64,000 nucleotides of DNA, taken from positions 140,269-204,268 of the forward strand of contig JBKEBX010000012.1 in assembly GCA_047973385.1 (NCBI GenBank), given 5' to 3'. The DNA is from Lachnospirales bacterium (GTDB lineage: Bacteria > Bacillota > Clostridia > Lachnospirales > CAMZNU01). Under the pieces are notes generated by a model. It saw nothing but the letters and a program-made list of their open reading frames with translations, did not search any database and had not been told where the DNA came from. The position numbers and the translations under genes were made by a program. Positions 19,028 through 55,771 of this stretch are shown here, one piece after another. How positions within the stretch are numbered: position 1 is the stretch's first letter; each line of letters opens with the position of its first letter.

Positions 19028-19118
19028 TATCATAAAGTAATTTTCATAGAAAATTACAATAATCTTAATGTGTAGCTGTATTTTATGTAGCTACGCATTT
19101 AGTTTATTATATCATAAA
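19028..19118. repeat. 91-bp structured intergenic repeat, an inverted copy of 24152..24242
   Basis: The reverse complement matches 24152..24242 at 89/91 positions by hand alignment. It holds two hairpins, GTAGCT..AGCTAC and GTAATTTTC-nnn-GAAAATTAC, plus TTTATGATATAAT-like boxes. Confidence 0.75.
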
Positions 19119-20027: not shown

Positions 20028-20274
20028 AACTATCACCACCTATACTATTTGTTTTTGGTATATTGTTAAATTTTAAAGGAAAAATAAGGTACAGTTTTAA
20101 AGATAAGTAATACAGTACCAAAAATTACAAGAAATAAATTTGTGCAATCTTAAAAAAATCAAGTTTTTCAAAACAATTGATTTAAACTATATTGCTTTTA
20201 TAACTTGTAATATGTATTTTGTACAAAAAAATAAATTTTTATACAAAAATACTTTTTTAAATGTTGCAAAAGTA

Positions 20275-20318
20275 AAAAAGACTGTAAAAATCGCATTAGC
20301 GATTTTTACAGTCTTTTT
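20275..20318. terminator. Perfect 20-bp stem hairpin, probable terminator of the trkH-trkA-trmH-ppiB transcription unit
   Basis: AAAAAGACTGTAAAAATCGC-atta-GCGATTTTTACAGTCTTTTT. Confidence 0.7.
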
Positions 20319-20330
20319 CGAAAATAAATA

Positions 20331-20507: not shown

Positions 20508-21026
20508 TTACATAATTTCTGGTTCTTGGAGTTCATCATCAATTTGAGTAATTGTAACTTCTTCCATTACTATATCTTCTAAAGGTCTATCTTGCATACC
20601 TGTTTCACAAGTAGCAATTTCATCAACAACATTCATGCCCTCAATAACTTTACCAAAAGCGGAATATTCTCCGTCTAAATGAGGTGAATCTTTGTGCATA
20701 ACAAAAAATTGTGAACCTGCTGAGTTATATGCTTGTGAACGTGCCATTGAAAGAACGCCTGCTGTATGTTTTAAATCATTATCAAAGCCATTTGACAAGA
20801 ATTCCCCTTTAATTGCATAACCAGGGCCTCCCATACCAGTGCCATTTGGACAGCCACCTTGTATCATAAAGTTTTCGATAACTCTATGGAAGATTAAGCC
20901 ATCATAAAAACCATTATCTACGAGAGATAAGAAATTGTTAACAGTATTTGGTGCGATTTCTGGATAGAGTTCAACAACAAAGGATTTACCGTTACTTAAA
21001 TAGAATGTTACTTGTGGATTGCTCAT
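20508..21026 (-). CDS. ppiB: Peptidyl-prolyl cis-trans isomerase, cyclophilin type
   Basis: Contains FHRVIENFMIQGG, SMARSQAYNSAGSQFF and FGKVIEGM. Confidence 0.92.
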   Translation of the reverse strand: MSNPQVTFYLSNGKSFVVELYPEIAPNTVNNFLSLVDNGFYDGLIFHRVIENFMIQGGCPNGTGMGGPGYAIKGEFLSNGFDNDLKHTAGVLSMARSQAYNSAGSQFFVMHKDSPHLDGEYSAFGKVIEGMNVVDEIATCETGMQDRPLEDIVMEEVTITQIDDELQEPEIM

Positions 21027-24091: not shown

Positions 24092-24246
24092 GTCGTAGCC
24101 ATGTATACGAGGCTACACATTAAGATTATTGTAATTTTTAAAGAAAATTACTTTATGATATAATAAACTAAATGCGTAGCTACATAAAATACAGCTACAC
24201 ATTAAGATTATTGTAATTTTCAAAGAAAATTACTTTATGATATAAT
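24092..24246. repeat. Two tandem copies (24092..24164 and 24165..24246) of the two-hairpin repeat unit, immediately upstream of lysA
   Basis: Each unit has hairpin 1 (GTAGCC..GGCTAC or GTAGCT..AGCTAC), then ACATTAAGATTATT, then hairpin 2 (GTAATTTTY-aaa-GAAAATTAC), then TTTATGATATAAT. A compensatory change is visible in the stem of hairpin 1. Confidence 0.75.
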
Positions 24247-24274: not shown

Positions 24275-25537
24275 ATGGAGAAATTATCAAAGGAAATGAA
24301 TTTTTTTAAGAATAATAATGCGAATGAACTTATGGAGAAATATGGTTCTCCATTGTATGTATATAGTGAAGATATACTGCTTGAAAGAACTAGGGAAATA
24401 AAGCAACTTGTTGATTATGATAACTTTGTTGTAAATTATAGTGCTAAGGCAAATACAAGTCTTGGTATTTTACAGATAATTGAAAAAGAAGGCTTACACG
24501 TTGATGCTATGAGTCCAGGAGAAATTTTTGTTGAAATGGAAGCAGGTTTTACAAGTGATAGGATTTTTTATATAAGTAACAATGTAAATGAAGATGAATT
24601 GATTTTTGCTCTTGAAAAAGGCGTAATAGTAAGTATAGATAGTTTATCACAACTTGAAATGATAGGTAACATCCATAAGAAAGCTTTAGTTAAAGGTTTT
24701 GACGGTGGAGTTTGTGTTAGATTTAATAGTGGCGTTGGTGCAGGTCATCACGAAAAAGTTGTTACAGGTGGTAAAAAGACTAAATTTGGTATTAATAGCG
24801 AGTATCTTGAAGATGTAAAAACAATTGCTAAGGAATATGATTTGAAAATAATCGGTATAAATCAACATATTGGCTCTTTGTTTATGGACGGTGAAAGCTA
24901 TATTCAAGGTGCTAAAAATATGATTGACCTTGCGAAAGAATTTCCTTTAATTAAATTTGTGGATTTAGGTGGAGGCTTTGGTATTCCATATAATAGAAAA
25001 CATGGTGAAAAGGCTTTAGATTTAAAAGAACTTGGAGAAATACTCTCAAAATACATAAATGACTTTACAAAAGAACTGGGTAGAGAAATAATCTTTAAAG
25101 TAGAGCCGGGACGTTACATAGCTTGTGAATGTGGTGTTATACTTGGAAAGGTAACTTCCATAAAAGAAAATAGTGGAGTTAAGTATGTTGGTTGCGATAT
25201 AGGATTTAACGTGCTTCAAAGACCTGTTATGTATGATAGTTACCATGAAATTGAAATTGACAGTCAAGACGGTGAACTTGAAAAAGTTACCGTAGTAGGA
25301 AACATTTGCGAGAGTGGTGATGTTTTAGGCAAAGATAGAATATTGCCAAAGGCAAGTGTTGGCGATGTTGTAACAGTTTATGATGCAGGTGCTTATGGAT
25401 ATACTATGGCGTCAAATTACAACCAAAGATTACGTCCTGCTGAAGTGCTTATACGTTCGAATGGTGAAGTTGTTTTACTTAGAAAAAGGGATTCTTTTGA
25501 GAGTTTAATAGAAAATCAGTTTAAAATTAATGTATAA
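24275..25537 (+). CDS. lysA: Diaminopimelate decarboxylase
   Basis: PLP-dependent Orn/DAP/Arg decarboxylase pattern: YSAKAN, DLGGGFGIPY, EPGRY, CESGD. It is 420 aa long. Confidence 0.92.
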   Translation: MEKLSKEMNFFKNNNANELMEKYGSPLYVYSEDILLERTREIKQLVDYDNFVVNYSAKANTSLGILQIIEKEGLHVDAMSPGEIFVEMEAGFTSDRIFYISNNVNEDELIFALEKGVIVSIDSLSQLEMIGNIHKKALVKGFDGGVCVRFNSGVGAGHHEKVVTGGKKTKFGINSEYLEDVKTIAKEYDLKIIGINQHIGSLFMDGESYIQGAKNMIDLAKEFPLIKFVDLGGGFGIPYNRKHGEKALDLKELGEILSKYINDFTKELGREIIFKVEPGRYIACECGVILGKVTSIKENSGVKYVGCDIGFNVLQRPVMYDSYHEIEIDSQDGELEKVTVVGNICESGDVLGKDRILPKASVGDVVTVYDAGAYGYTMASNYNQRLRPAEVLIRSNGEVVLLRKRDSFESLIENQFKINV

Positions 25538-28673: not shown

Positions 28674-28716
28674 GAAGAAAGTAGCAAGGCTATGTTAAAA
28701 ACCTTACTACTTTCTT
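28674..28716. terminator. Hairpin between convergent genes (28087..28650 and kbl)
   Basis: GAAGAAAGTAGCAAGG ... CCTTACTACTTTCTT followed by a T run. Confidence 0.6.
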
Positions 28717-40975: not shown

Positions 40976-43696
40976 TCAATTTTGCAACGTTTCCATATAC
41001 GTTTCATAGTCTTTGTAAATATTATTATTTATACTATCATAGAAAAGATTTGTATTTTCGGAAATAGTATAAATTCTTGATGAGTTAATAGATATAGAGT
41101 ATTGTAAAGAAACCTCTTTAATAAGGTCAAAAACATCAATACATTTGATTTTATTTTGTTCAAGGAAAAATTCAAGGAGTTCATCAAGCTTAATATTTTT
41201 TTTACCTTTAACAAGAACCTTATTGCCTCCAACTCTTAAGTATGAAAACAAATCACGAGCCTCTATTAAAATTGAAGTAAAGAACCAATCAGGAAAATCA
41301 AATTTATGTAGTCTATGATGGAAGCCTGATTTTAGTAGACTGTATACGGTGAAATAATCGTTGGAAACATTATTGTAAACATAATTAACATAGGTTTTTA
41401 TATCATTTTTATCTATATTATATTTTTTTGTAAGGGTTTCTATATTAATATATTTTTTGGGGAAATATTCTATAACTTCATAGTCCAATTTTAGTTTATT
41501 TATACAGGACACATATGAAACGATTGTAGTTATTTCTTTTGGAAAAGTTAAGGTTTCAAAATAATCATACTTTAAAATATAATTATTGAAAAAATCAAAG
41601 GCTGTAGGGTATTTTTCACTAATTATGTAGTTAGAATATACTTTAAATCCAATGGATTTCATTGTATAAGTATTCAAATATTTTTGGCTACTTTGAGAAA
41701 AAGCTTCTAAAAATATTTTTTCTACTTCATAAAAAAAGTAGAAATCCTTTACAAGTAATCCTTGTAGTTTTTTTTCAAATTCCTCACTTAGCTCGGGAAA
41801 ATCCACCTTATAGTAATCGTCATAAAAATACACATCAATAGTATCTAAACAGTTTGAAAGTACAGTTTTATAAGAAACTCCAAACTCTTCTTGATAGGCT
41901 TTTGCAAAATTATATTTAGTGATTGGAGCAAGTTTTATAAGCAAATCTAAAACTTGTTTATCAATATCAGGTGTACCAAACTCAATACTTGGCATTCTTG
42001 CAAAGCTTAGGGTTGGGTATTCTTCCTTTGTACAAATTTTTTTAAGTAAATTATGCAGTTCATATTCATCAACTATATCGTATTCCTTCATAAGTTCAGG
42101 ATACATCTTAAAAAATTTATTTGTCGAATATTTCGTATTTTGATATTGATTTGAGTTAAGATTTAAAGTGCTTAGAAAATCAGAAAAATCGTATAGAGTT
42201 GTGTCATAATATCTAAAACGCTTACCATATTTCCACAAAGCATATGGACTTGCAGAAAGCTTATTTTCATAGCTTCTATCAAGAGGGGTTAATTTTTCGT
42301 TATTTGAAAGCCCTGAAGTTTTTAACAGGTCACAATATATGTTAACAAATTCCTTAAATGTAACACTATCTTTAGTATAATTTCTTAAAACATAGTTAGA
42401 TAAATCATTTTTAGTACAAGGTATATACTTTTTATCTATTTTAACATAATTTTTATAGATTGCTTTTTCTAAAGTTGTTTTTACACTTTTAGGAATGGTA
42501 TGGTCATTTAAAATATCATTTAAAGGACGTTTATTAGGGTTGTTTTTAACTTTTCGTATGTATAGATAGTTATATGTTGTATTTGAACCGAAAACTAGTT
42601 TAAAGTCCTCAGAAAAAATATTATAATTGTCATATATTTCTCTATACAAGTCCTCACGAAATTTCAACTTGTTTTTATCAAAATATTTAAAAATATCTTT
42701 TTCTATTTGTCGAATTCGCTCACGAGTTAGTCCTAAATTCTTCCCAACAGTTTCTAAAGTTTGCCCCTTCAATCGACTTTCTAAAATGTTAAGCTTTTTT
42801 GTGTTTAGAAAATTTGGTGCAACTGTTTTAATGGGAGGAGAGTATATAATATATCTGTTTTCTTCTAACAATTCCAATCTGTTTTCTCTACATAAATTAT
42901 TTAAAATAAAATTTATGTATGCATAACTATTGAAATATTTTGGCATAATATTCAAAATATCACTTGTAGTTAAGCCGTATGGCTGGTTGTATATAATATT
43001 TAACAAATAATTTTCAAAGATATTTTGTAAATAAACACTTTTATATAAAAACTCATTAAACTCATCACTATTTAAAAAATCATATTTATCTACATAAGAA
43101 TTTTTTTTAATATTGCTTATAAATTTGCCTAAAGTTTTAGTTTTTTGTTTATAAAAACTTAGCTTAGATATGTCAATATATTTTGTAATTTCTCTAGCGA
43201 GTTCAACACAAACTTTTTCTGTAAAATTAGAAATCAATATATTACTTGAGTATAAAGTGAAATCAGTGTTATTTTTTATATATTCAATCTCATTTATAAC
43301 TCTTGTACCAAGTGTTGAATTTTTCTTTAGGTTTTGTGTTTCAAAAGTTAAAATATCAGAAAAATATAAAATATTATTTTCTTTTAATGAATTATATGTG
43401 TTTATGCTCATTTTAATATTTTTAATAGAAATATCAATACAAATTTCATCTTTATTATTAATAAAAAGTTTTTTGCTTTCGTTAAAAAGACTAGGGTATT
43501 TAACTTTAAGATTGTCTATACAATCTAAAATTTCCCGAAGGCTTTTATCGCCTATATTTTTCATTTGATAAATTTCCATATAGGTAAGCTTAGACAAATC
43601 TTCATATGTATTGTGATTAGCTTCCTTTAGGGCGTTTTTAGAACGTGAAGAAATTGGTAAATCAGTTATTGATTTTTGTGCAATATCTCTTTTCAT
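40976..43696 (-). CDS. Large (906 aa) hypothetical DNA-binding protein with two RpoA-C-terminal-domain-like HhH modules, a sigma-70 region-4-like HTH and a ~550-aa uncharacterised C-terminal region
   Basis: The first module is LPISSRSKNALKEANHNTYEDLSKLTYMEIYQMKNIGDKSLREILDCI (alpha-CTD pattern). A second, weaker copy is MSINTYNSLKENNILYFSDIL...LGTRVINEI. The HTH is GQTLETVGKNLGLTRERIRQIEKDIFKYF. Codon usage is very AT-rich. Confidence 0.6.
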   Translation of the reverse strand: MKRDIAQKSITDLPISSRSKNALKEANHNTYEDLSKLTYMEIYQMKNIGDKSLREILDCIDNLKVKYPSLFNESKKLFINNKDEICIDISIKNIKMSINTYNSLKENNILYFSDILTFETQNLKKNSTLGTRVINEIEYIKNNTDFTLYSSNILISNFTEKVCVELAREITKYIDISKLSFYKQKTKTLGKFISNIKKNSYVDKYDFLNSDEFNEFLYKSVYLQNIFENYLLNIIYNQPYGLTTSDILNIMPKYFNSYAYINFILNNLCRENRLELLEENRYIIYSPPIKTVAPNFLNTKKLNILESRLKGQTLETVGKNLGLTRERIRQIEKDIFKYFDKNKLKFREDLYREIYDNYNIFSEDFKLVFGSNTTYNYLYIRKVKNNPNKRPLNDILNDHTIPKSVKTTLEKAIYKNYVKIDKKYIPCTKNDLSNYVLRNYTKDSVTFKEFVNIYCDLLKTSGLSNNEKLTPLDRSYENKLSASPYALWKYGKRFRYYDTTLYDFSDFLSTLNLNSNQYQNTKYSTNKFFKMYPELMKEYDIVDEYELHNLLKKICTKEEYPTLSFARMPSIEFGTPDIDKQVLDLLIKLAPITKYNFAKAYQEEFGVSYKTVLSNCLDTIDVYFYDDYYKVDFPELSEEFEKKLQGLLVKDFYFFYEVEKIFLEAFSQSSQKYLNTYTMKSIGFKVYSNYIISEKYPTAFDFFNNYILKYDYFETLTFPKEITTIVSYVSCINKLKLDYEVIEYFPKKYINIETLTKKYNIDKNDIKTYVNYVYNNVSNDYFTVYSLLKSGFHHRLHKFDFPDWFFTSILIEARDLFSYLRVGGNKVLVKGKKNIKLDELLEFFLEQNKIKCIDVFDLIKEVSLQYSISINSSRIYTISENTNLFYDSINNNIYKDYETYMETLQN

Positions 43697-43769
43697 AAAT
43701 TACTCTCCTAAATTATATTTAAAATTTACAATTTATATTGAATATCTTTTATGTTATTTACTTGTTATA

Positions 43770-44747
43770 TTAAAAAAAATCAGAATAGTACTTTAGCTTA
43801 GTATATGCAAGAGGATAATGTTGTAAAACATCATAGCAAAACTCATCAACAAAGCATTGATTTCTTTTGTGTTTAGCGTGTAAAATAGCTTTTATGCCAA
43901 TACATATAGCAGGTTCTACATTGTTTATTTCTTCTGCGTATGTAATCTTAAACAATATCTTATATGATGTTTCTAAATCATAGGAAAAATCATTTTCTAT
44001 ACAAAAGTTAATCAGTGATTGACATATTTCTTTGGCAAAAATATAATTACCTTTTTCTAAATATAGACTAGCCAAGCTATTGTTAGCTATTATATAATTT
44101 CTGTATACAGACATAGGTATCATAAAACAAGGTATAGTTTCACTAGAATAATGTGATCGCATAGAGTTTATTATAAGATCTAAAAGTGTTTTACTATTTT
44201 TATATTTTGATTTTTTTGCATAGATGACTGCCATTAAGTTAAAAACAGCATATGAAGATTCATAGCCTAAAAAGCTTTCTTTGTGAGCTTTTTCAAAATC
44301 ATATTCCGTAGTGTTAAGGGCGTAAAAACAATAGTCCAAAGCTTTGTTATCCTCATTGTTACCATAAAAAGCAATATATGCTTTTCCTAAAAAAATGATT
44401 TGTTTGTATGCAGAATAATCTAGAGATAGAATTTTTTCATCGCTAGATTTTGAAAGTAGTGTTTTGAGCTTAGATATATTTTTATGCTCAATATAGCGTT
44501 TTATTTCTTGGTATCTTTTATACTGTTCTTTTGAGTTAAAATGAATAATAACATCAGCATATGAACCAACATAAATCTTTAAAGACTTACATAAAGCAGA
44601 TATAGTGTTGATATTTGACTTGTATGTATTATTATCAATTCTGTGAATTTGCCGACTTGAAATGTTTGATAGTGCTTCAATTTGGCTAACAGTATACTTT
44701 TTTTCATCTCTAAAATATTTTAGGATATCTCCTATTTCAGTACTCAT
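43770..44747 (-). CDS. XRE-HTH plus TPR-like repeat transcriptional regulator (Rgg/PlcR-type, RNPP-like)
   Basis: N-terminal HTH (KYTVSQIEALSNISSRQIHRIDN) followed by ~260 aa of helical repeat-like sequence. The 325-aa length is typical of Rgg/PlcR-type peptide-sensing regulators. Confidence 0.65.
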   Translation of the reverse strand: MSTEIGDILKYFRDEKKYTVSQIEALSNISSRQIHRIDNNTYKSNINTISALCKSLKIYVGSYADVIIHFNSKEQYKRYQEIKRYIEHKNISKLKTLLSKSSDEKILSLDYSAYKQIIFLGKAYIAFYGNNEDNKALDYCFYALNTTEYDFEKAHKESFLGYESSYAVFNLMAVIYAKKSKYKNSKTLLDLIINSMRSHYSSETIPCFMIPMSVYRNYIIANNSLASLYLEKGNYIFAKEICQSLINFCIENDFSYDLETSYKILFKITYAEEINNVEPAICIGIKAILHAKHKRNQCFVDEFCYDVLQHYPLAYTKLKYYSDFF

Positions 44748-44793
44748 ATAAATTACCTCATTACTTTTAAAAAATACAAAATCAACAATACTA

Positions 44794-44822
44794 TTGTAAA
44801 TTAATTGGTTTTATATTATAAT
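44794..44822 (+). promoter_or_regulatory. Near-consensus sigma-A promoter (TTGTAA - 17 nt - TATAAT) driving the 17-codon ORF, with the overlapping palindrome ACAATA-c-TATTGT (44785..44797)
   Basis: Read directly from the sequence. It is divergent from the regulator gene. Confidence 0.45.
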
Positions 44823-44838
44823 ATTACTTGGTTAGAAA

Positions 44839-44892
44839 ATGAAAATAATTTATATTTTACTTTTCGAGAACAATTGTGAAGGATTGTTCTAA
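44839..44892 (+). CDS. Unlisted 17-codon ORF MKIIYILLFENNCEGLF, a candidate short hydrophobic signalling pro-peptide
   Basis: Hand translation. It has its own promoter upstream and a hairpin directly after the stop. It is divergent from the Rgg/RNPP-like regulator. The RBS is weak. Confidence 0.35.
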   Translation: MKIIYILLFENNCEGLF

Positions 44893-44933
44893 AAAATGTT
44901 ATAATTCGTTATATACAAATTATAACATTTTTT
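44891..44933 (+). terminator. Perfect 16-bp AT-rich inverted repeat followed by a T run (terminator or operator)
   Basis: AAAAAATGTTATAATT-cgttatataca-AATTATAACATTTTTT then TTT. Confidence 0.5.
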
Positions 44934-45067
44934 TTGTAAAAATACAAATATAAATATGTTGTTTTATATATATTTGCAATTTACCATAAATTATATAGTA
45001 TACTATCCTACAAAATGAAGAAAATATATGTATAAGTGAAACTCACTAAAATTCTTCGGAGGTATGT

Positions 45068-45850
45068 ATGTATAGTAATAGGGTAGAAATTTGTGGTATA
45101 GATACGAGTAAACTACCGCTTTTATCATCGAAGGAAAAAAAAGAACTGTTAGAAAAAGCTGTAAATGGAGATATAGACGCAAGGGAGAAATTTATATTTT
45201 CAAATCTTAGGCTTGTGCTTAGTCTAATTCAAAAATATATTCATAGGGCTGACAAAAGTAATATAGATGACATTTTTCAAGTAGGTTGCATAGGTTTAAT
45301 TAAAGCTTTAGATAACTTTGATTTAAGTCAAGGTGTGCAGTTTTCAACTTATGCCTGTCCAATGATTATTGGTGAAATAAAAAGATTTTTAAGAGATAAT
45401 TCACCTATACGCATTTCAAGGTCCATTAGGGAAACGGCTTTTAAAGCACTTGAGGAAAAGGAAAAGCTTACAAGAACATTAAACAGAGAGCCTACAATTG
45501 AAGAAATAGGAGAGGGTTTAAACATGAGTAAAAAAGATGTTGCCTATGCTCTTGAAAGTATAGTTACACCTATTTCTTTATATGAGCCTATTTTTAATGA
45601 TAATGGTGACAGTATGTTTGTTTTAGAACAAATTAAAGATGATAAAAACACTGATGCACTTTGGATAGAAAATATGTCAATAAAAGAGGGGATTGAAAAC
45701 TTAAATTTTAAAGAAAAAGAAATAATAAATTTAAGATATTTTATTGGTAGAACCCAATGTGAAGTTGCAGAAGAAATTGGTATAAGTCAAGCTCAAGTTT
45801 CAAGACTTGAAAAGGTTGCTTTAAAAAATATTAAAAAGTATTTAAACTAA
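45068..45850 (+). CDS. sigG: Sporulation sigma factor SigG
   Basis: Contains NRVEICGIDTSKLPLL, NLRLVLSLIQKY, FSTYACPMIIGEIKRFLRDNSPIRISRS and EIGISQAQVSRLEK. It is closest to the SigG pattern, not SigF. Confidence 0.9.
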   Translation: MYSNRVEICGIDTSKLPLLSSKEKKELLEKAVNGDIDAREKFIFSNLRLVLSLIQKYIHRADKSNIDDIFQVGCIGLIKALDNFDLSQGVQFSTYACPMIIGEIKRFLRDNSPIRISRSIRETAFKALEEKEKLTRTLNREPTIEEIGEGLNMSKKDVAYALESIVTPISLYEPIFNDNGDSMFVLEQIKDDKNTDALWIENMSIKEGIENLNFKEKEIINLRYFIGRTQCEVAEEIGISQAQVSRLEKVALKNIKKYLN

Positions 45851-45861
45851 AAGGAGTTACA

Positions 45862-46287
45862 ATGGAAAAAGAATTGTTAAACTATGTATATAAAAATGCT
45901 CAGATGGGCGTAGAAACACTTTCGGGACTTATAAACATTACAGAAGATAAAAGCTTCAAAAATGAGCTTAAAAGTCAATTTGAAGAATATTCATCAATTT
46001 TAGATGAAACAAAGATGCTTATATCTAAAAATGATGAAGATGAAGAAGGTTTAAGTCTATTTGAAAAAATTGAAAGCTATATTACACTTAATATCAAAAC
46101 TTTAAAGGATAAAAGTTCTTCTAATATTTCTGAAATGTTGATAATCGGTAGTACTATGGGAACTATACAAGCTACAAGGTCAATAAACAAGTATAAGGGT
46201 AAATGTTTTGAGGAAGAAATCAAGCTTATGGAAAAGTTGTTGGACACTGAAGAAAACAATATTAAAGAATTGAAAAAATATTTATAA
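45862..46287 (+). CDS. Hypothetical helical protein (141 aa) downstream of sigG
   Basis: Good RBS and tight spacing after sigG. No motif recognised. Confidence 0.5.
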   Translation: MEKELLNYVYKNAQMGVETLSGLINITEDKSFKNELKSQFEEYSSILDETKMLISKNDEDEEGLSLFEKIESYITLNIKTLKDKSSSNISEMLIIGSTMGTIQATRSINKYKGKCFEEEIKLMEKLLDTEENNIKELKKYL

Positions 46288-46290
46288 AAC

Positions 46291-46467
46291 ATATGGCGAC
46301 CTTGCAAAATATAGAAAAATCCATTTTCATAACAAAACAACGGCTGCTTTTGACAAAACCCAAGGGAATAGCATAAAGTCGCTATTTACTAAGTTTGTCA
46401 AAAGTATGAAAATTTGCTTTTTCTTTTGTAATGTGCCCTCATTTTAATTTTGCAACGTTTCCATATA
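46291..46467. repeat. ~176-bp element bounded by inverted terminal motifs (ATATGGCGACCTTGCAAAATA ... AATTTTGCAACGTTTCCATATA); MITE-like family copy E2
   Basis: The termini are reverse complements at about 17/21 positions by hand alignment. An internal inverted repeat is CTTTTGACAAAAC ... GTTTGTCAAAAG. The right end is identical over 22 nt to 40978..40999. Confidence 0.5.
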
Positions 46468-46560
46468 TAATCTAAAGTTATGTTTATACAAAAATAGTAT
46501 ATTCATAGCTTTTTATATTGCAAGAAAACTAACAAAAAATAAAAAAAATGTGAAATACTC

Positions 46561-46589
46561 TTGACAAAACGCTATAAAAGTAATATACT
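46561..46589 (+). promoter_or_regulatory. Sigma-A promoter of the fab operon (TTGACA - 17 nt - TATACT)
   Basis: Read directly from the sequence, about 30 nt upstream of the fabH RBS. Confidence 0.5.
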
Positions 46590-46621
46590 TTGAGTGTCAA
46601 AATAAAATTTTAGGAGAGATT

Positions 46622-47581
46622 ATGAAAGTTTTAGGAGTAGGTTCATATGTGCCTGGTAAAGTTTTAATAAATAAAGACTTTGAAAGTATAGTTGATACAA
46701 GTGATGAGTGGATTGTTTCTAGAACTGGAATTGAAAAGCGTCATATAGTAGTTGATGAAAAGACTTCAGATATGGCTATAAAGGCGAGTAAAAGCTTACT
46801 TGAAAATTATAATATTGACCCATTGACTATTGATATGGTGATTTTATCAACTGTTACACCTGATTATTTAACACCAGCAACAGCTTCCATTGTACAGGAG
46901 GCTATTGGGGCAAAAAATGCTTTTTCTTTTGATATATCTTCTGCTTGTGCTGGATTTGTTTCTGCAATGAGTATAGCTAATAGTTTTCTATCTTCAAAAA
47001 TAAATAGGATTTTAGTTATTTCTGCTGAAACCCTTTCGAAGATTACTAATTTTGATGATAGAAACACATGTGTGCTTTTTGGTGATGGTGCAGGTTGTAT
47101 GTTAGTTGAAAATGGTGGAGAAGAATTTTATAATAATATGAAAACAGAAAGTTCAAAAGTTGCTTCTTTATATGGACACCCAATCAAAAATAATAGTCCA
47201 TTTTCTAAGGAAAATATAACTGACGACGAGTTTTTACACATGAATGGTCGTGATGTTTTTGAGCTTGTTACAAAACTTGTACCCCTTAATATAACTGAGC
47301 TTTTAGAGGATAGCAAGATTAATCTTGAGGATATTTATAAAATAATTCCTCATCAAGCGAATAAAAGACTTATTGAAGCTTTGGCGAAAAAGTTGTATAA
47401 TAGTATGGAGAATGTTTTTGTAAACATTCAAAACTATGGTAACACTTCATCAGCGAGTATTCCGATTGCATTTGATGATTTAGTAAAATCTAAAAACTTA
47501 GCTCTTGGCTCTGGTGAGAAAGTACTTATTGTTGGCTATGGTGCTGGCTTCACATATGGAAGTGGCATCTTAACTATATAA
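46622..47581 (+). CDS. fabH: 3-oxoacyl-ACP synthase III
   Basis: Active-site Cys (DISSACAGF), then HQANKRL and GNTSSASIP. Confidence 0.93.
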   Translation: MKVLGVGSYVPGKVLINKDFESIVDTSDEWIVSRTGIEKRHIVVDEKTSDMAIKASKSLLENYNIDPLTIDMVILSTVTPDYLTPATASIVQEAIGAKNAFSFDISSACAGFVSAMSIANSFLSSKINRILVISAETLSKITNFDDRNTCVLFGDGAGCMLVENGGEEFYNNMKTESSKVASLYGHPIKNNSPFSKENITDDEFLHMNGRDVFELVTKLVPLNITELLEDSKINLEDIYKIIPHQANKRLIEALAKKLYNSMENVFVNIQNYGNTSSASIPIAFDDLVKSKNLALGSGEKVLIVGYGAGFTYGSGILTI

Positions 47582-55732: not shown

Positions 55733-55771
55733 AAAAAACAGTAAGGAATTTTTAAAATTCTTTACTGTTTT
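55733..55771. terminator. Bidirectional terminator between accA and glgD
   Basis: AAAAAACAGTAAGGAATTT-ttaa-AATTCTTTACTGTTTTT. Confidence 0.75.

Follow-up and report, generated by a model that had tools for sequence, protein, structure and literature searches.

The locus described here raises the question of whether a 17-codon open reading frame (ORF), located beside the gene of a regulator, encodes the pheromone of that regulator. In the 64,000-nucleotide stretch of DNA that was analyzed (hereafter the window), sequence reading placed the ORF in a 320-nt spacer with 19% G+C, which separates the regulator gene on the left (− strand) from a SigG-like sporulation sigma factor gene on the right (+ strand). 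An initial annotation had described positions 44785–44933 as a self-contained mini-gene with operator, promoter, ORF, and hairpin, and had proposed the ORF product as a candidate pheromone precursor in an autoinduction loop. All of these elements are present at the positions given, but the ORF, the promoter, and the operator each stand at chance level when taken alone. The spacer is best explained as a control region between the divergent PlcR-type receptor gene and the SigG-like gene. We favor, with a probability of about 0.45, the reading that the slot lacks a canonical propeptide gene, that the ORF is a remnant or a chance frame, and that a 43-bp palindrome adjoining it serves mainly as a face-to-face promoter/operator module.

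The regulator is a PlcR-like peptide-pheromone receptor

The regulator gene (43770..44747, − strand) encodes a protein of 325 aa with an N-terminal XRE-type helix-turn-helix (HTH) and TPR-like helical repeats. Pfam applied to this protein alone gave a weak HTH_26 match and no TPR HMM. Forty-three distant homologues of about 310–340 aa each were found, and the family members P0002–P0043 share 20–33% identity with the regulator. Among the 26 members that were aligned, HTH_3 was present in 24, and up to 16 matched any single TPR model. The family profile matched PlcR (2qfc) over positions 1–306 (E=1e-17), and Rgg2 over positions 1–203 only (E=1e-6). An alignment-based AF2 model of the regulator (pLDDT 90.5) gave the PlcR-PapR7-DNA structure 3u3w_A as its top Foldseek match (TM 0.73/0.83), followed in order by NrpR, ComR, Rgg2, PrgX, and NprR, while the sequence identity to PlcR is only 10–11%. 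The signature of the RRNPP class includes a receptor length of 250–500 aa (PMC10075063), a range that covers the 325 aa of the regulator. TPR-type repeats and an HTH were likewise found, as judged from the family HMM matches, the profile, and the AF2 model. These results place the regulator among the RRNPP receptors, which sense peptide pheromones in the cytoplasm, and within that class make it PlcR-like; the profile and the AF2/Foldseek comparison thus uphold the initial view of it as a pheromone receptor. The Rgg- or ComR-like receptor that was implied by an analogy with SHP and XIP was not borne out. No Rgg family match was found in NCBIfam or Pfam, the Rgg C-terminal model TIGR01716 was not hit, and the analogy rests only on peptide length and orientation.

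Neither the regulator nor the locus had an orthologue in searches of 15 billion proteins, 185,579 species genomes, and metagenome contigs, and 5.8 billion clusters and 1.84 billion representatives contained no relative of the regulator above about 33% identity. On the other side of the spacer, the SigG-like gene (45068..45850, + strand) encodes a protein with Sigma70 regions r2, r3, and r4 (Pfam), which scored 387.9 bits against NCBIfam NF006071 SigG (cutoff 372) and fell under the cutoff of TIGR02850. Its closest relative in a scan of 185,579 species genomes has 61% identity. The scan gave 80 SigG-like loci (up to 61% identity), and in their vicinity the regulator, the 906-aa gene, clpX, the 141-aa gene, and fabH were all missing, as was any member of the regulator's family. 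A role of the neighboring genes in a defense system was rejected, as PADLOC returned weak HTH matches only. An Rfam search of 43500–46700 yielded nothing meaningful.

Homologous loci encode secreted propeptides in the divergent slot

Eleven homologous loci could be assessed for the content of the divergent slot directly upstream of the regulator. A secreted propeptide was encoded there in 7 of the 11 (L001, L003, L005, L006, L008, L009, and L011), and therefore the initial annotation had picked the right slot. In L010 the propeptide gene lies one gene further from the regulator. In 3 of the 11 loci it is missing, and so receptors without an adjacent propeptide gene (orphans) do occur in this PlcR-like family. 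The regulator is a member of a so far unnamed PlcR-like RRNPP subfamily with divergent propeptide genes, some of which hold 4–11 tandem copies.

The propeptides of the relatives range from 39 to 179 aa, and three of them contain the tandem pheromone repeats (4–11 copies). A GGAGG ribosome-binding site is used by all 8 family propeptide genes, and all 8 products have an MKK signal-peptide start, with a full-length signal peptide in 7 of the 8. The uncharged run comprises 13–17 residues in 7 of the 8; in L008 the hydrophobic run is short, at 8 residues, and Glu comes next. Several of the propeptides terminate in DH or HxMW-type motifs. Their leaders are about 30–40 nt long, the spacer between regulator and propeptide gene measures 116–200 nt, and a GC-containing palindrome of 16–20 bp (GACA-N4-TGTC-type) is found upstream of the propeptide promoter in L001, L003, L005, L009, and L011. 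The gene order of the relatives (regulator, divergent promoter, small unit, stem-loop) is also that of the window, and the −35 ATTGTAA of the propeptide promoters in L001, L008, and L009 is present at the + strand promoter-like site of the window as well. The cassette in the window looks orphan or degenerate.

The 17-codon ORF lacks the traits of the family propeptide genes

The ORF (MKIIYILLFENNCEGLF) extends on the + strand from the ATG at 44839 through 17 codons to the TAA at 44890–44892 (44839..44892 including the stop), exactly as first read, and its ATG is about 91–92 nt away from the divergent start codon of the regulator gene. The RRNPP signature calls for a small ORF of 10–100 aa directly adjacent to the receptor gene (PMC10075063). 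The 17-aa frame lies within that range, though a frame of this size is expected by chance here: when the 320-nt spacer was shuffled, 72% of the shuffles contained an ATG-ORF of at least 17 codons. The spacer also has another such ORF, of 20 codons, at 44956–45018.

The initial annotation had itself pointed to a poor Shine-Dalgarno sequence and a very short leader, and both were confirmed. Shine-Dalgarno pairing of the ORF is −2.2 kcal/mol, compared with a median of −8.25 for 42 real genes in the window, and is at background level; 44% of all ATGs in the window pair at least as well. The high-confidence ribosome-binding site that the RRNPP signature asks of an unannotated peptide (PMC10075063) was not found. 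Because the ATG stands only 16 nt past the −10 box, the leader would be about 9 nt long. In the predicted RNA fold, the start codon is enclosed in a weak hairpin (44835–44865), and in the MFE structure of 44828–44945 a 9-bp hairpin (AGAACAAUU / GAUUGUUCU; 44867..44890, + strand) is formed within codons 10–17 of the ORF. The latter hairpin, the one around the start codon, and the extended −10 boxes in the palindrome arms described below had all been missed in the initial annotation.

For the propeptide, the RRNPP signature asks for either a Sec/SPI signal peptide or a match to the SHP profile (PMC10075063). The peptide has an uncharged, hydrophobic run of 7 residues, and 17 aa with a run of this length are too small for a Sec/SPI signal peptide together with a mature part. 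The GGAGG site, the MKK signal peptide, and the length of at least 39 aa that characterize the divergent propeptide family are all absent. A type I toxin was considered and rejected, on the reasoning that a hydrophobic stretch of 7 residues is too short for a membrane span. A degenerate back-translation of the 17-aa peptide found no match in metagenome contigs. No other propeptide, in the sense of a small ORF that combines a signal-like N-terminus with a ribosome-binding site, was detected near the regulator, and the single such small ORF in the 64 kb (20579–20632) lies about 24 kb from it.

From these features we infer that the ORF most likely goes untranslated, and we take it for a remnant or a chance frame within a control region as the most probable reading. 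It may be the decayed stump of a former propeptide gene, in which an MK-plus-hydrophobic start would remain with nothing behind it; alternatively, it may be a chance frame in very AT-rich DNA. The receptor would then be an orphan, or would use a peptide encoded elsewhere in the genome.

Some observations count against this reading of the ORF. The propeptide units of the relatives show the same succession of promoter, short ORF, hairpin, and T-run, and share the −35 ATTGTAA. The N-terminus of the ORF ranked 35th of 653 random small ORFs, i.e. in the top 5%, for likeness to the family signal-peptide start, as scored with a matrix built from the 8 family propeptides. L008, too, has a short hydrophobic run (8 residues) and then Glu. 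Finally, Sec-independent pheromones of 17–26 aa, with an internal Glu or Asp as the cleavage point, are known for other RRNPP receptors (PMC3679016; PMC10075063).

The promoter-like sites and the 13-bp palindrome are at chance level

An AT-rich palindrome of 13 bp (ACAATAcTATTGT, 44785..44797) is a candidate operator. Two divergent promoter-like sites have −35 hexamers that overlap with it. The + strand site, TTGTAA-17-TATAAT (44794..44822), consists of TTGTAA at 44794–44799 and TATAAT at 44817–44822, with 10 of 12 matches and no TG extension; the palindrome ACAATA-c-TATTGT overlaps its −35 just as had been described. Facing the regulator gene on the − strand is TTTACA-18-TATTTT (44771..44800), with 9 of 12 matches, which is chance level, and with a −35 that overlaps that of the + strand site. 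Promoter-like sites in 43500–45300 numbered 15, compared with 13.6 ± 4.2 in shuffles.

The proposal that the 13-bp palindrome is the binding site of the regulator found no statistical support. Palindromes of the ACAAT..ATTGT form occur 8 times in the window against 4.5 expected, a count reached by 7 of 100 shuffles, and the operator 15-mer has no further copies beyond chance. The palindrome is unlike the GACA-N4-TGTC-type, GC-containing palindromes of the homologous spacers, and a site of that type was absent from the spacer of the window even with one mismatch allowed. At 19% G+C, the presence of a promoter together with a short ORF and a small palindrome is no evidence of a gene, and the chance level of such elements matters for the weighing of first-stage calls of the same kind.

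The 43-bp palindrome presents two opposed extended −10 boxes

The sole element clearly above chance is a near-perfect palindrome of 43 bp (44891..44933), the 19-nt arms of which (44891–44909 and 44915–44933) are 95% complementary. The perfect 16-bp hairpin followed by Ts that was first reported is real and does overlap the stop codon of the ORF, but is longer than had been claimed. A run of eight Ts (44928–44935) overlaps the palindrome and then extends past it. The RNA fold z-score was −7.1 for the hairpin alone and −4.8 for 44828–44945, with 0 of 200 shuffles as good. The palindrome is not repeated elsewhere in the window. A repeat or mobile element was rejected as the origin of the mini-gene, which has no second copy within the 64 kb.

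As RNA, the palindrome forms a 19-bp AU-rich hairpin before a U-run, and as DNA it presents two opposed extended −10 boxes. The box on the + strand (TGTTATAAT, 44897..44905) points toward the SigG-like gene, 163 nt downstream, and the same box on the − strand (44919..44927) points toward the regulator gene, 172 nt downstream, so that both arms carry the extended −10 sigma-A motif (TGnTATAAT) in the correct orientation upstream of a gene. The motif TGNTATAAT occurs 27 times in the window against 8.55 expected, a three-fold excess that 0 of 100 shuffles reached, and 9 of its 10 intergenic copies, both palindrome arms included, are located within 200 nt upstream of a same-strand gene. Weak −35 hexamers, as found here, are likewise seen at the other extended −10 promoters in the window. 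In unrelated metagenome loci, where TTGACA promoters lie between MarR-like and MATE genes, a sequence identical to the arm forms their −10; as homologous loci these matches were rejected, their flanks being unrelated.

Because both arms are perfect extended −10 boxes, each directed at a different flanking gene, we read the palindrome mainly as a promoter/operator module. One arm would be the promoter of the regulator gene, and the other possibly that of the sigma gene; in place of the eye-catching "terminator" there may be two extended −10 promoters set face to face. A rightward transcript from the TTGTAA-17-TATAAT site would stop at the palindrome, since the latter folds in RNA and is followed by U residues. 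Which of these promoters fire, and any binding of the receptor in the spacer, we infer from the sequence. As mirror images of each other, the two −10 boxes count as one observation rather than two. A sigma-A-type promoter would be unusual for a forespore sigma gene, and this counts against the palindrome as a promoter module, as does the match of its A6 and T8 flanks to the terminator style of the genome.

The latter match bears on the alternative that the palindrome is a plain intrinsic (bidirectional) terminator, which would insulate the sigma gene from transcription of the region to its left. The −10 boxes would then be a by-product of an AT-rich stem, and 44785–44892 would be otherwise functionless beyond the promoter of the regulator. 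The A6 ... T8 flanks and the long stem do resemble four terminators in the window (14786–14832, 20274–20319, 28675–28716, and 55737–55769), and the hairpin is stable on the − strand (−18.4 kcal/mol). The initial annotation had closed its unit with the hairpin and the Ts that follow, but this element is equally readable as a pair of extended −10 promoters that face each other, one for each flanking gene. The stem, however, has only 2 G-C pairs, and the hairpin is not called by the terminator scan. Clear bidirectional terminators in the window have 5–6 G-C pairs and lie between convergent genes, whereas the palindrome lies between divergent genes, where there is nothing to terminate unless a short unit exists. 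Chance alone should also seldom place a perfect TGNTATAAT in an arm of 16–19 nt, and in this genome the motif is a genuine promoter signal. We consider a plain terminator unlikely.

Alternative functions of the ORF and its transcript

That the ORF is a functional pheromone gene appears to us improbable. Its product would be a short, Sec-independent precursor of the SHP/XIP-like kind, which a dedicated transporter would export. Cleavage at Glu10 would release ENNCEGLF, or a C-terminal peptide shorter than that, for re-import and binding to the receptor, and action of the receptor at ACAATAcTATTGT would then autoinduce the mini-gene. The RRNPP type of the receptor is in favor of such a function, as are the slot and orientation shared with the cognate propeptide genes of 7 of 11 relatives, the −35 ATTGTAA common to their promoters, the rank of the N-terminus among random small ORFs, and the lack of a better candidate peptide in the 64 kb. 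The hairpin and U-run would make the unit self-contained. The 17 aa fit the 10–100-aa range of the RRNPP signature (PMC10075063), and the peptide has the MK start, hydrophobic stretch, and internal Glu (residue 10) of SHPs (PMC3679016). However, the Shine-Dalgarno pairing at background level, the leader of about 9 nt, and the paired start codon all speak against such a function, while GGAGG and an MKK signal-peptide start are used by all 8 family propeptides. The length is below that of the listed SHPs (22–26 aa), and the putative mature part, ENNCEGLF, is polar, in contrast to the hydrophobic cores of SHPs (PMC3679016). The receptor is PlcR-like rather than Rgg or ComR, with TIGR01716 not hit, and neither the ORF nor the promoter nor the 13-bp palindrome rises above chance by itself. 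At best, the ORF falls outside the 'loose' tier of RRNPP_detector, which demands a high-confidence ribosome-binding site (PMC10075063). The original proposal of a candidate pheromone precursor was thus right about the slot and the receptor class, but the ribosome-binding site, the full signal peptide, and the family length are missing. Were the ORF to work as a signal, no earlier case of an SHP-style leaderless pheromone paired with a PlcR-like receptor would be known outside Bacilli and streptococci. Its place beside a sporulation-type sigma gene would then make it truly interesting for the study of quorum sensing in gut Clostridia.

Just as improbable, in our estimate, is a non-coding RNA of about 105 nt with three hairpins, which would begin near 44830 and end at the U-run. 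The receptor could control this RNA in the way that AimR of the arbitrium system controls aimX; the RNA could also be antisense to a long leader of the regulator mRNA, if that mRNA starts at the right arm of the palindrome. The − strand extended −10 box (44919–44927) would in fact give a regulator leader of 165 nt that overlaps the unit. Three hairpins in 44828–44945 with a z-score of −4.8, unequaled in 200 shuffles, are consistent with a structured RNA, and so are the perfect −10 box 16 nt before the ATG, the terminal hairpin with its U-run, and the poor ribosome-binding site. Most of the fold energy, however, is supplied by the single palindrome, the promoter is at chance level, and there was no match in Rfam. 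Pairing of the RNA with the translation starts of the regulator, the sigma, or the 141-aa gene was at shuffle level (z = 0.3 to 0.8).

A broader proposal, which we regard as a long shot, is that the PlcR-like receptor of this uncultured Lachnospirales bacterium has swapped a Sec-exported propeptide for a 17-aa Sec-independent pheromone (roughly ENNCEGLF or CEGLF), and that the pair gates the SigG-like gene via read-through or promoter competition at the palindrome. If true, it would link cell density to a sporulation-type sigma factor. Least probable is an attenuator of the SigG-like gene that senses translation of the ORF as a leader peptide (uORF) and in which a ribosome at the stop codon (44890–44892) would cover the left arm and allow read-through: the stop codon does abut the left arm of the hairpin, a U-run follows, and the sigma gene begins 135 nt downstream on the same strand, but the poor ribosome-binding site would leave little translation to sense, the fold shows no alternative anti-terminator pairing, and 0 of 80 SigG loci had a comparable upstream arrangement or the same neighbors.

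Comparison with known systems

The palindrome recalls extended −10 (TGnTATAAT) promoters with palindromic operators, such as those of MarR type, in that both of its arms are TGTTATAAT. Gut metagenomes contain the same 12-nt arms, set around an 11-nt center, between MarR-like and MATE genes, and there one arm serves as the −10 of a TTGACA-17/18 promoter. In the window, by contrast, no MarR gene is near the palindrome, the −35 hexamers are weak, though this is usual for the genome, and the A/T-tract flanks make the palindrome terminator-like.

With the Rgg/SHP systems the locus shares the divergent orientation of the ORF relative to the receptor gene, as in SHP groups I and II. The features held in common with both Rgg/SHP and ComR/XIP are a very short peptide, basic and then hydrophobic at its N-terminus, with an acidic residue inside it of the kind at which mature SHPs start (PMC3679016), a presumed need for Sec-independent export, as for PptAB substrates (PMC10075063), and the RRNPP fold of the receptor, which is common to Rgg2 and ComR. 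The window receptor is nevertheless closer to PlcR, the Rgg profile match covering positions 1–203 only, and the ORF lacks a ribosome-binding site. Listed SHPs have 22–26 aa and hydrophobic C-terminal cores such as DILIIVGG and EGIIVIVVG (PMC3679016), whereas the C-terminal half of the window peptide (ENNCEGLF) is polar.

PlcR-PapR of the Bacillus cereus group has the same receptor architecture and fold, with an N-terminal HTH and TPR-like repeats. The relatives of the window receptor resemble it further in having an adjacent small gene for a Sec-exported propeptide, with a palindromic box upstream of its promoter. The propeptide gene of these relatives is divergent and upstream, whereas papR lies downstream of plcR on the same strand. 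The slot in the window differs from PlcR-PapR in holding a 17-aa ORF without signal peptide or ribosome-binding site, and in having neither a PlcR-box-like nor a family-type palindrome. In comparison with its own family (P0002–P0043), the window lacks the long MKK propeptide, GGAGG, the leader of 30–40 nt, the GACA-N4-TGTC palindrome, and the DH or HxMW-type end, and its spacer from regulator to ORF is about 91 nt rather than 116–200 nt. The regulator itself is a full-length member of this PlcR-like family, with 20–33% identity and the same gene order.

A PlcR-like receptor and its neighbours

Taken by itself, the 325-aa regulator (43770–44747, − strand) gave only a weak HTH_26 match and no NCBIfam family match. 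In a database of 5.8 billion clusters it matched only itself, annotated as a Lachnospirales MAG, and no protein in the databases exceeded about 33% identity to it. An exhaustive HMMER search yielded 43 distant relatives with 20–33% identity, mostly 305–345 aa long. Among 26 aligned relatives, HTH_3 was present in 24, and any one TPR model in at most 16 (TPR_2 in 16, TPR_12 in 15). The alignment profile matched PlcR (2qfc) over positions 1–306 (E = 1e-17) and, partially, Rgg2, ComR, and RapF. An AlphaFold model built with this alignment (pLDDT 90.5, pTM 0.83) had PlcR-PapR7-DNA (3u3w_A) as its top PDB match (TM 0.73/0.83), and NrpR, ComR, Rgg2, PrgX, and NprR were among the lower-ranked ones. 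On the basis of the profile and model matches, the regulator is a PlcR-like RRNPP peptide receptor, in agreement with the adjacent peptide-sensing regulator presumed in the initial annotation. The receptor is new and isolated, yet of a known kind.

Downstream of the regulator, at 73 nt, a same-strand gene (40976–43696, −) encodes a 906-aa protein, and therefore the two may form one operon. Residues 3–66 of this protein resemble the RNA polymerase alpha C-terminal domain, with a possible second copy (two stretches were reported), and a sigma-70 region-4 HTH occupies residues 308–336; the remaining ~570 residues had no match in Pfam, NCBIfam, PADLOC, or PDB sequences. To the right, the SigG-like sigma factor gene (45068–45850, +), whose product scored above the NF006071 cutoff and below that of TIGR02850, is located between the receptor and the fab operon (fabH 46622, fabK 47898). 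The next gene (45862–46287, +) encodes a protein of 141 aa for which no family match was found. Among 185,579 species genomes, the best relative of the SigG-like protein was 61% identical, and none of the best 80 SigG loci carried any window neighbour gene or a member of the regulator family.

Propeptide genes upstream of the regulator's relatives

Genomic context was retrieved for 12 regulator relatives, with usable upstream DNA in 11. A divergent small gene was found directly upstream of the regulator in seven of the 11 loci, in every case with MKK at the start and a ribosome-binding site of the GGAGG type. After MKK, the hydrophobic signal segment is complete in six and only 8 residues long in L008. 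Three of the products consist of a signal peptide and tandem units: four of APSTLDHAMWT(L) in L001 (65 aa; 2609–2806, −), four of (H/R)EQMIWAKD in L005 (57 aa; 2709–2882, −), and APETFEHEMWASNxV units in L006 (179 aa; 1538–2077, −). These units are near-identical, with a common core H/Q-x-M-(I)-W. The others are those of L003 (39 aa, ...GPIVIVELR), L008 (42 aa, ...ELNDHIPNA), L009 (40 aa, ...TRDHACDA), and L011 (39 aa, ...TTHDQAHHS). In L010, a similar 39-aa gene is set apart by one intervening gene, and no propeptide gene was seen in L012, L013, and L014, making 3 of 11 receptors orphans. GC-containing palindromes of the GACA-N4-TGTC type were present in the spacers of L001, L003, L005, L009, and L011, 83–102 nt 5' of the propeptide ATG. 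Several propeptide promoters have ATTGTAA at −35, as in the window, and L001 and L003 each have a canonical stem-loop terminator 3' of the propeptide gene. The relatives constitute an RRNPP subfamily with divergent, predicted Sec-exported propeptides.

In L013, a 125-aa gene (1160–1537, −) adjoins the regulator relative, and the double-glycine-type leader of its product (…MDEEEMQDVNGG) suggests a bacteriocin-like target. Proteins of ~400 aa directly adjoin three relatives (L001:4074–5282, L006:3336–4532, L014:9–1217); those in L006 and L014 are MFS transporters, the L001 one had no Pfam match, and a link with the export or import of peptides is possible.

A palindrome in an AT-rich spacer

The intergenic spacer between the flanking genes (44748–45067) is 320 nt long with 19% G+C. 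Direct reading of the sequence recovered every element that had been described: the candidate operator ACAATAcTATTGT (44785–44797), a promoter-like site (TTGTAA 44794–44799, 17 nt, TATAAT 44817–44822, +), the ORF MKIIYILLFENNCEGLF (ATG 44839, TAA 44890–44892, +), and the hairpin, whose arms (44891–44909 and 44915–44933) are longer than noted, 19 nt each and 95% complementary. Most of these are expected by chance in DNA of 19% G+C. Promoter-like sites in 43500–45300 did not exceed shuffles (15 versus 13.6 ± 4.2), ACAAT-N-ATTGT palindromes were not significantly enriched (8 versus 4.5; 7 of 100 shuffles attained 8), and the 15-mer around the candidate operator had no additional copies. Of the spacer shuffles, 72% contained an ATG-ORF with 17 codons or more, and the real spacer holds a second one of 20 codons. 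Another tiny frame, MKKIYV-stop (45015–45035, +), lies 33 nt 5' of the SigG-like start codon; it starts like the 17-aa ORF (MK, then I/K-I-Y), has no ribosome-binding site, and is probably chance in AT-rich DNA. The sole clearly non-random element is the 43-bp palindrome (44891–44933), which alone folded with z = −7.1.

The palindrome as promoter, operator, or terminator

The arm sequence TGTTATAAT is a perfect extended −10 box. The window contains 27 copies of TGNTATAAT (expected 8.55 ± 2.9; 0 of 100 shuffles attained 27). Ten of the 27 copies fall within intergenic DNA, which makes up 11.6% of the window, and nine of these ten lie at most 200 nt upstream of a same-strand gene; the window's TGNTATAAT promoters mostly have weak −35 hexamers. 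The box in arm 1 points towards the SigG-like gene at a distance of 163 nt, and that in arm 2 towards the regulator gene at 172 nt, with both predicted start sites at ~44912, about the spacer centre. Elsewhere, two nearly identical tandem promoter modules, cacattaagattattgtaatttt[t/c]aaagaaaattacttta TGATATAAT, are located upstream of the gene at 24275 (24116–24164 and 24198–24246, +). An exact copy of the 20 nt (aaactaaatgcgtagctaca) that follow the box at 24156 stands after the box at 19106–19114 on the other strand (19086–19114, −), and this may be a shared leader element.

In metagenomes, the stem sequence was found in 23 stretches of ~7 contexts, which were rejected as homologues of the window locus because the contexts are unrelated. 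The palindrome AATGTTATAATT-N11-AATTATAACATT recurs in gut-metagenome contigs (L095–L116, e.g. L103:6753–6787, L097:3346–3380), most commonly in the spacer from which a MarR-like regulator gene (146 aa) and a MATE-type transporter gene diverge. In this context, one of the two arms serves as the −10 in a TTGACA-17/18-TATAAT promoter, so the palindrome of these spacers is probably a MarR operator.

Four clear bidirectional terminators of the window (14786–14832, 20274–20319, 28675–28716, 55737–55769) show this genome's typical terminator style: long A/T-flanked hairpins (17–22 bp) with 5–6 G-C pairs, three of them between convergent genes. With 2 G-C pairs and a position between divergent genes, the 43-bp palindrome differs from these, so a promoter/operator role is considered no less likely than that of a terminator. 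The roles are compatible; any RNA initiated at the promoter-like site would include a U-run besides both arms, and would be prone to end at the palindrome. A plain terminator, with nothing else functional in the segment, would agree with the T8 run (44928–44935) and is doubtful in view of the arm boxes. The most likely reading (probability about 0.45) is that the segment is a control region. The ORF would then be untranslated, either a chance frame or what remains of a former propeptide gene, and the receptor would be an orphan or be served by a peptide encoded elsewhere.

The 17-codon ORF as a propeptide gene

The ORF has the slot and orientation of the relatives' propeptide genes, and its promoter resembles theirs. 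It differs in its length (17 aa versus at least 39 aa), its uncharged run (7 residues versus 13–17 in 7 of 8 relatives and 8 in L008), its lack of a ribosome-binding site, and its distance to the regulator gene (91 nt versus 116–200 nt); the family-type operator is absent at the window's locus. Shine-Dalgarno pairing of the ORF was −2.2 kcal/mol, against a median of −8.25 for 42 window genes, and 44% of all ATGs pair at least as strongly. The −10 box ends 16 nt 5' of the start codon, which would give a leader of ~9 nt. With a position matrix made from eight family propeptide N-termini, the ORF ranked 35th of 653 random small window ORFs, a suggestive rather than decisive result, and scored lower than 7 of the 8 true propeptides. 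Near the regulator there was no further small ORF combining a ribosome-binding site with a signal-like N-terminus, and the only one in the 64 kb is ~24 kb off. No metagenome contig matched the back-translated peptide.

This comparison makes it unlikely that the ORF encodes the pheromone of the adjacent regulator, as the initial annotation had proposed, and the mini-gene is itself unproven. Equally unlikely is a non-coding or antisense RNA; it would fit the fold of 44828–44945, which gave three hairpins (z = −4.8), one including the start codon (44835–44865), one inside codons 10–17 (44867–44890), and the palindrome (44891–44933), and would depend on a promoter of a kind found at shuffle level. 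Less probable still is a Sec-independent 17-aa pheromone for the PlcR-like receptor wired to the SigG-like sigma factor. That the ORF is a uORF attenuator for the sigma gene is very improbable, given its weak Shine-Dalgarno pairing.

Comparison with known peptide systems

The proposed analogy to SHP and XIP precursors holds for the orientation, the basic-then-hydrophobic start, and the internal Glu (PMC3679016), and fails for the ribosome-binding site, the receptor, which is not of the Rgg or ComR type, and the C-terminal half, ENNCEGLF, which is polar. RRNPP_detector demands a strong ribosome-binding site for a peptide like that of the ORF (PMC10075063). The regulator's subfamily matches the published five-criterion RRNPP signature (PMC10075063). 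This PlcR-like subfamily appears to be unnamed so far. Multi-copy propeptides are already known in Rap-Phr systems, where up to 8 copies are reported (PMC11343458), and the L006 propeptide exceeds these with 11 tandem units.
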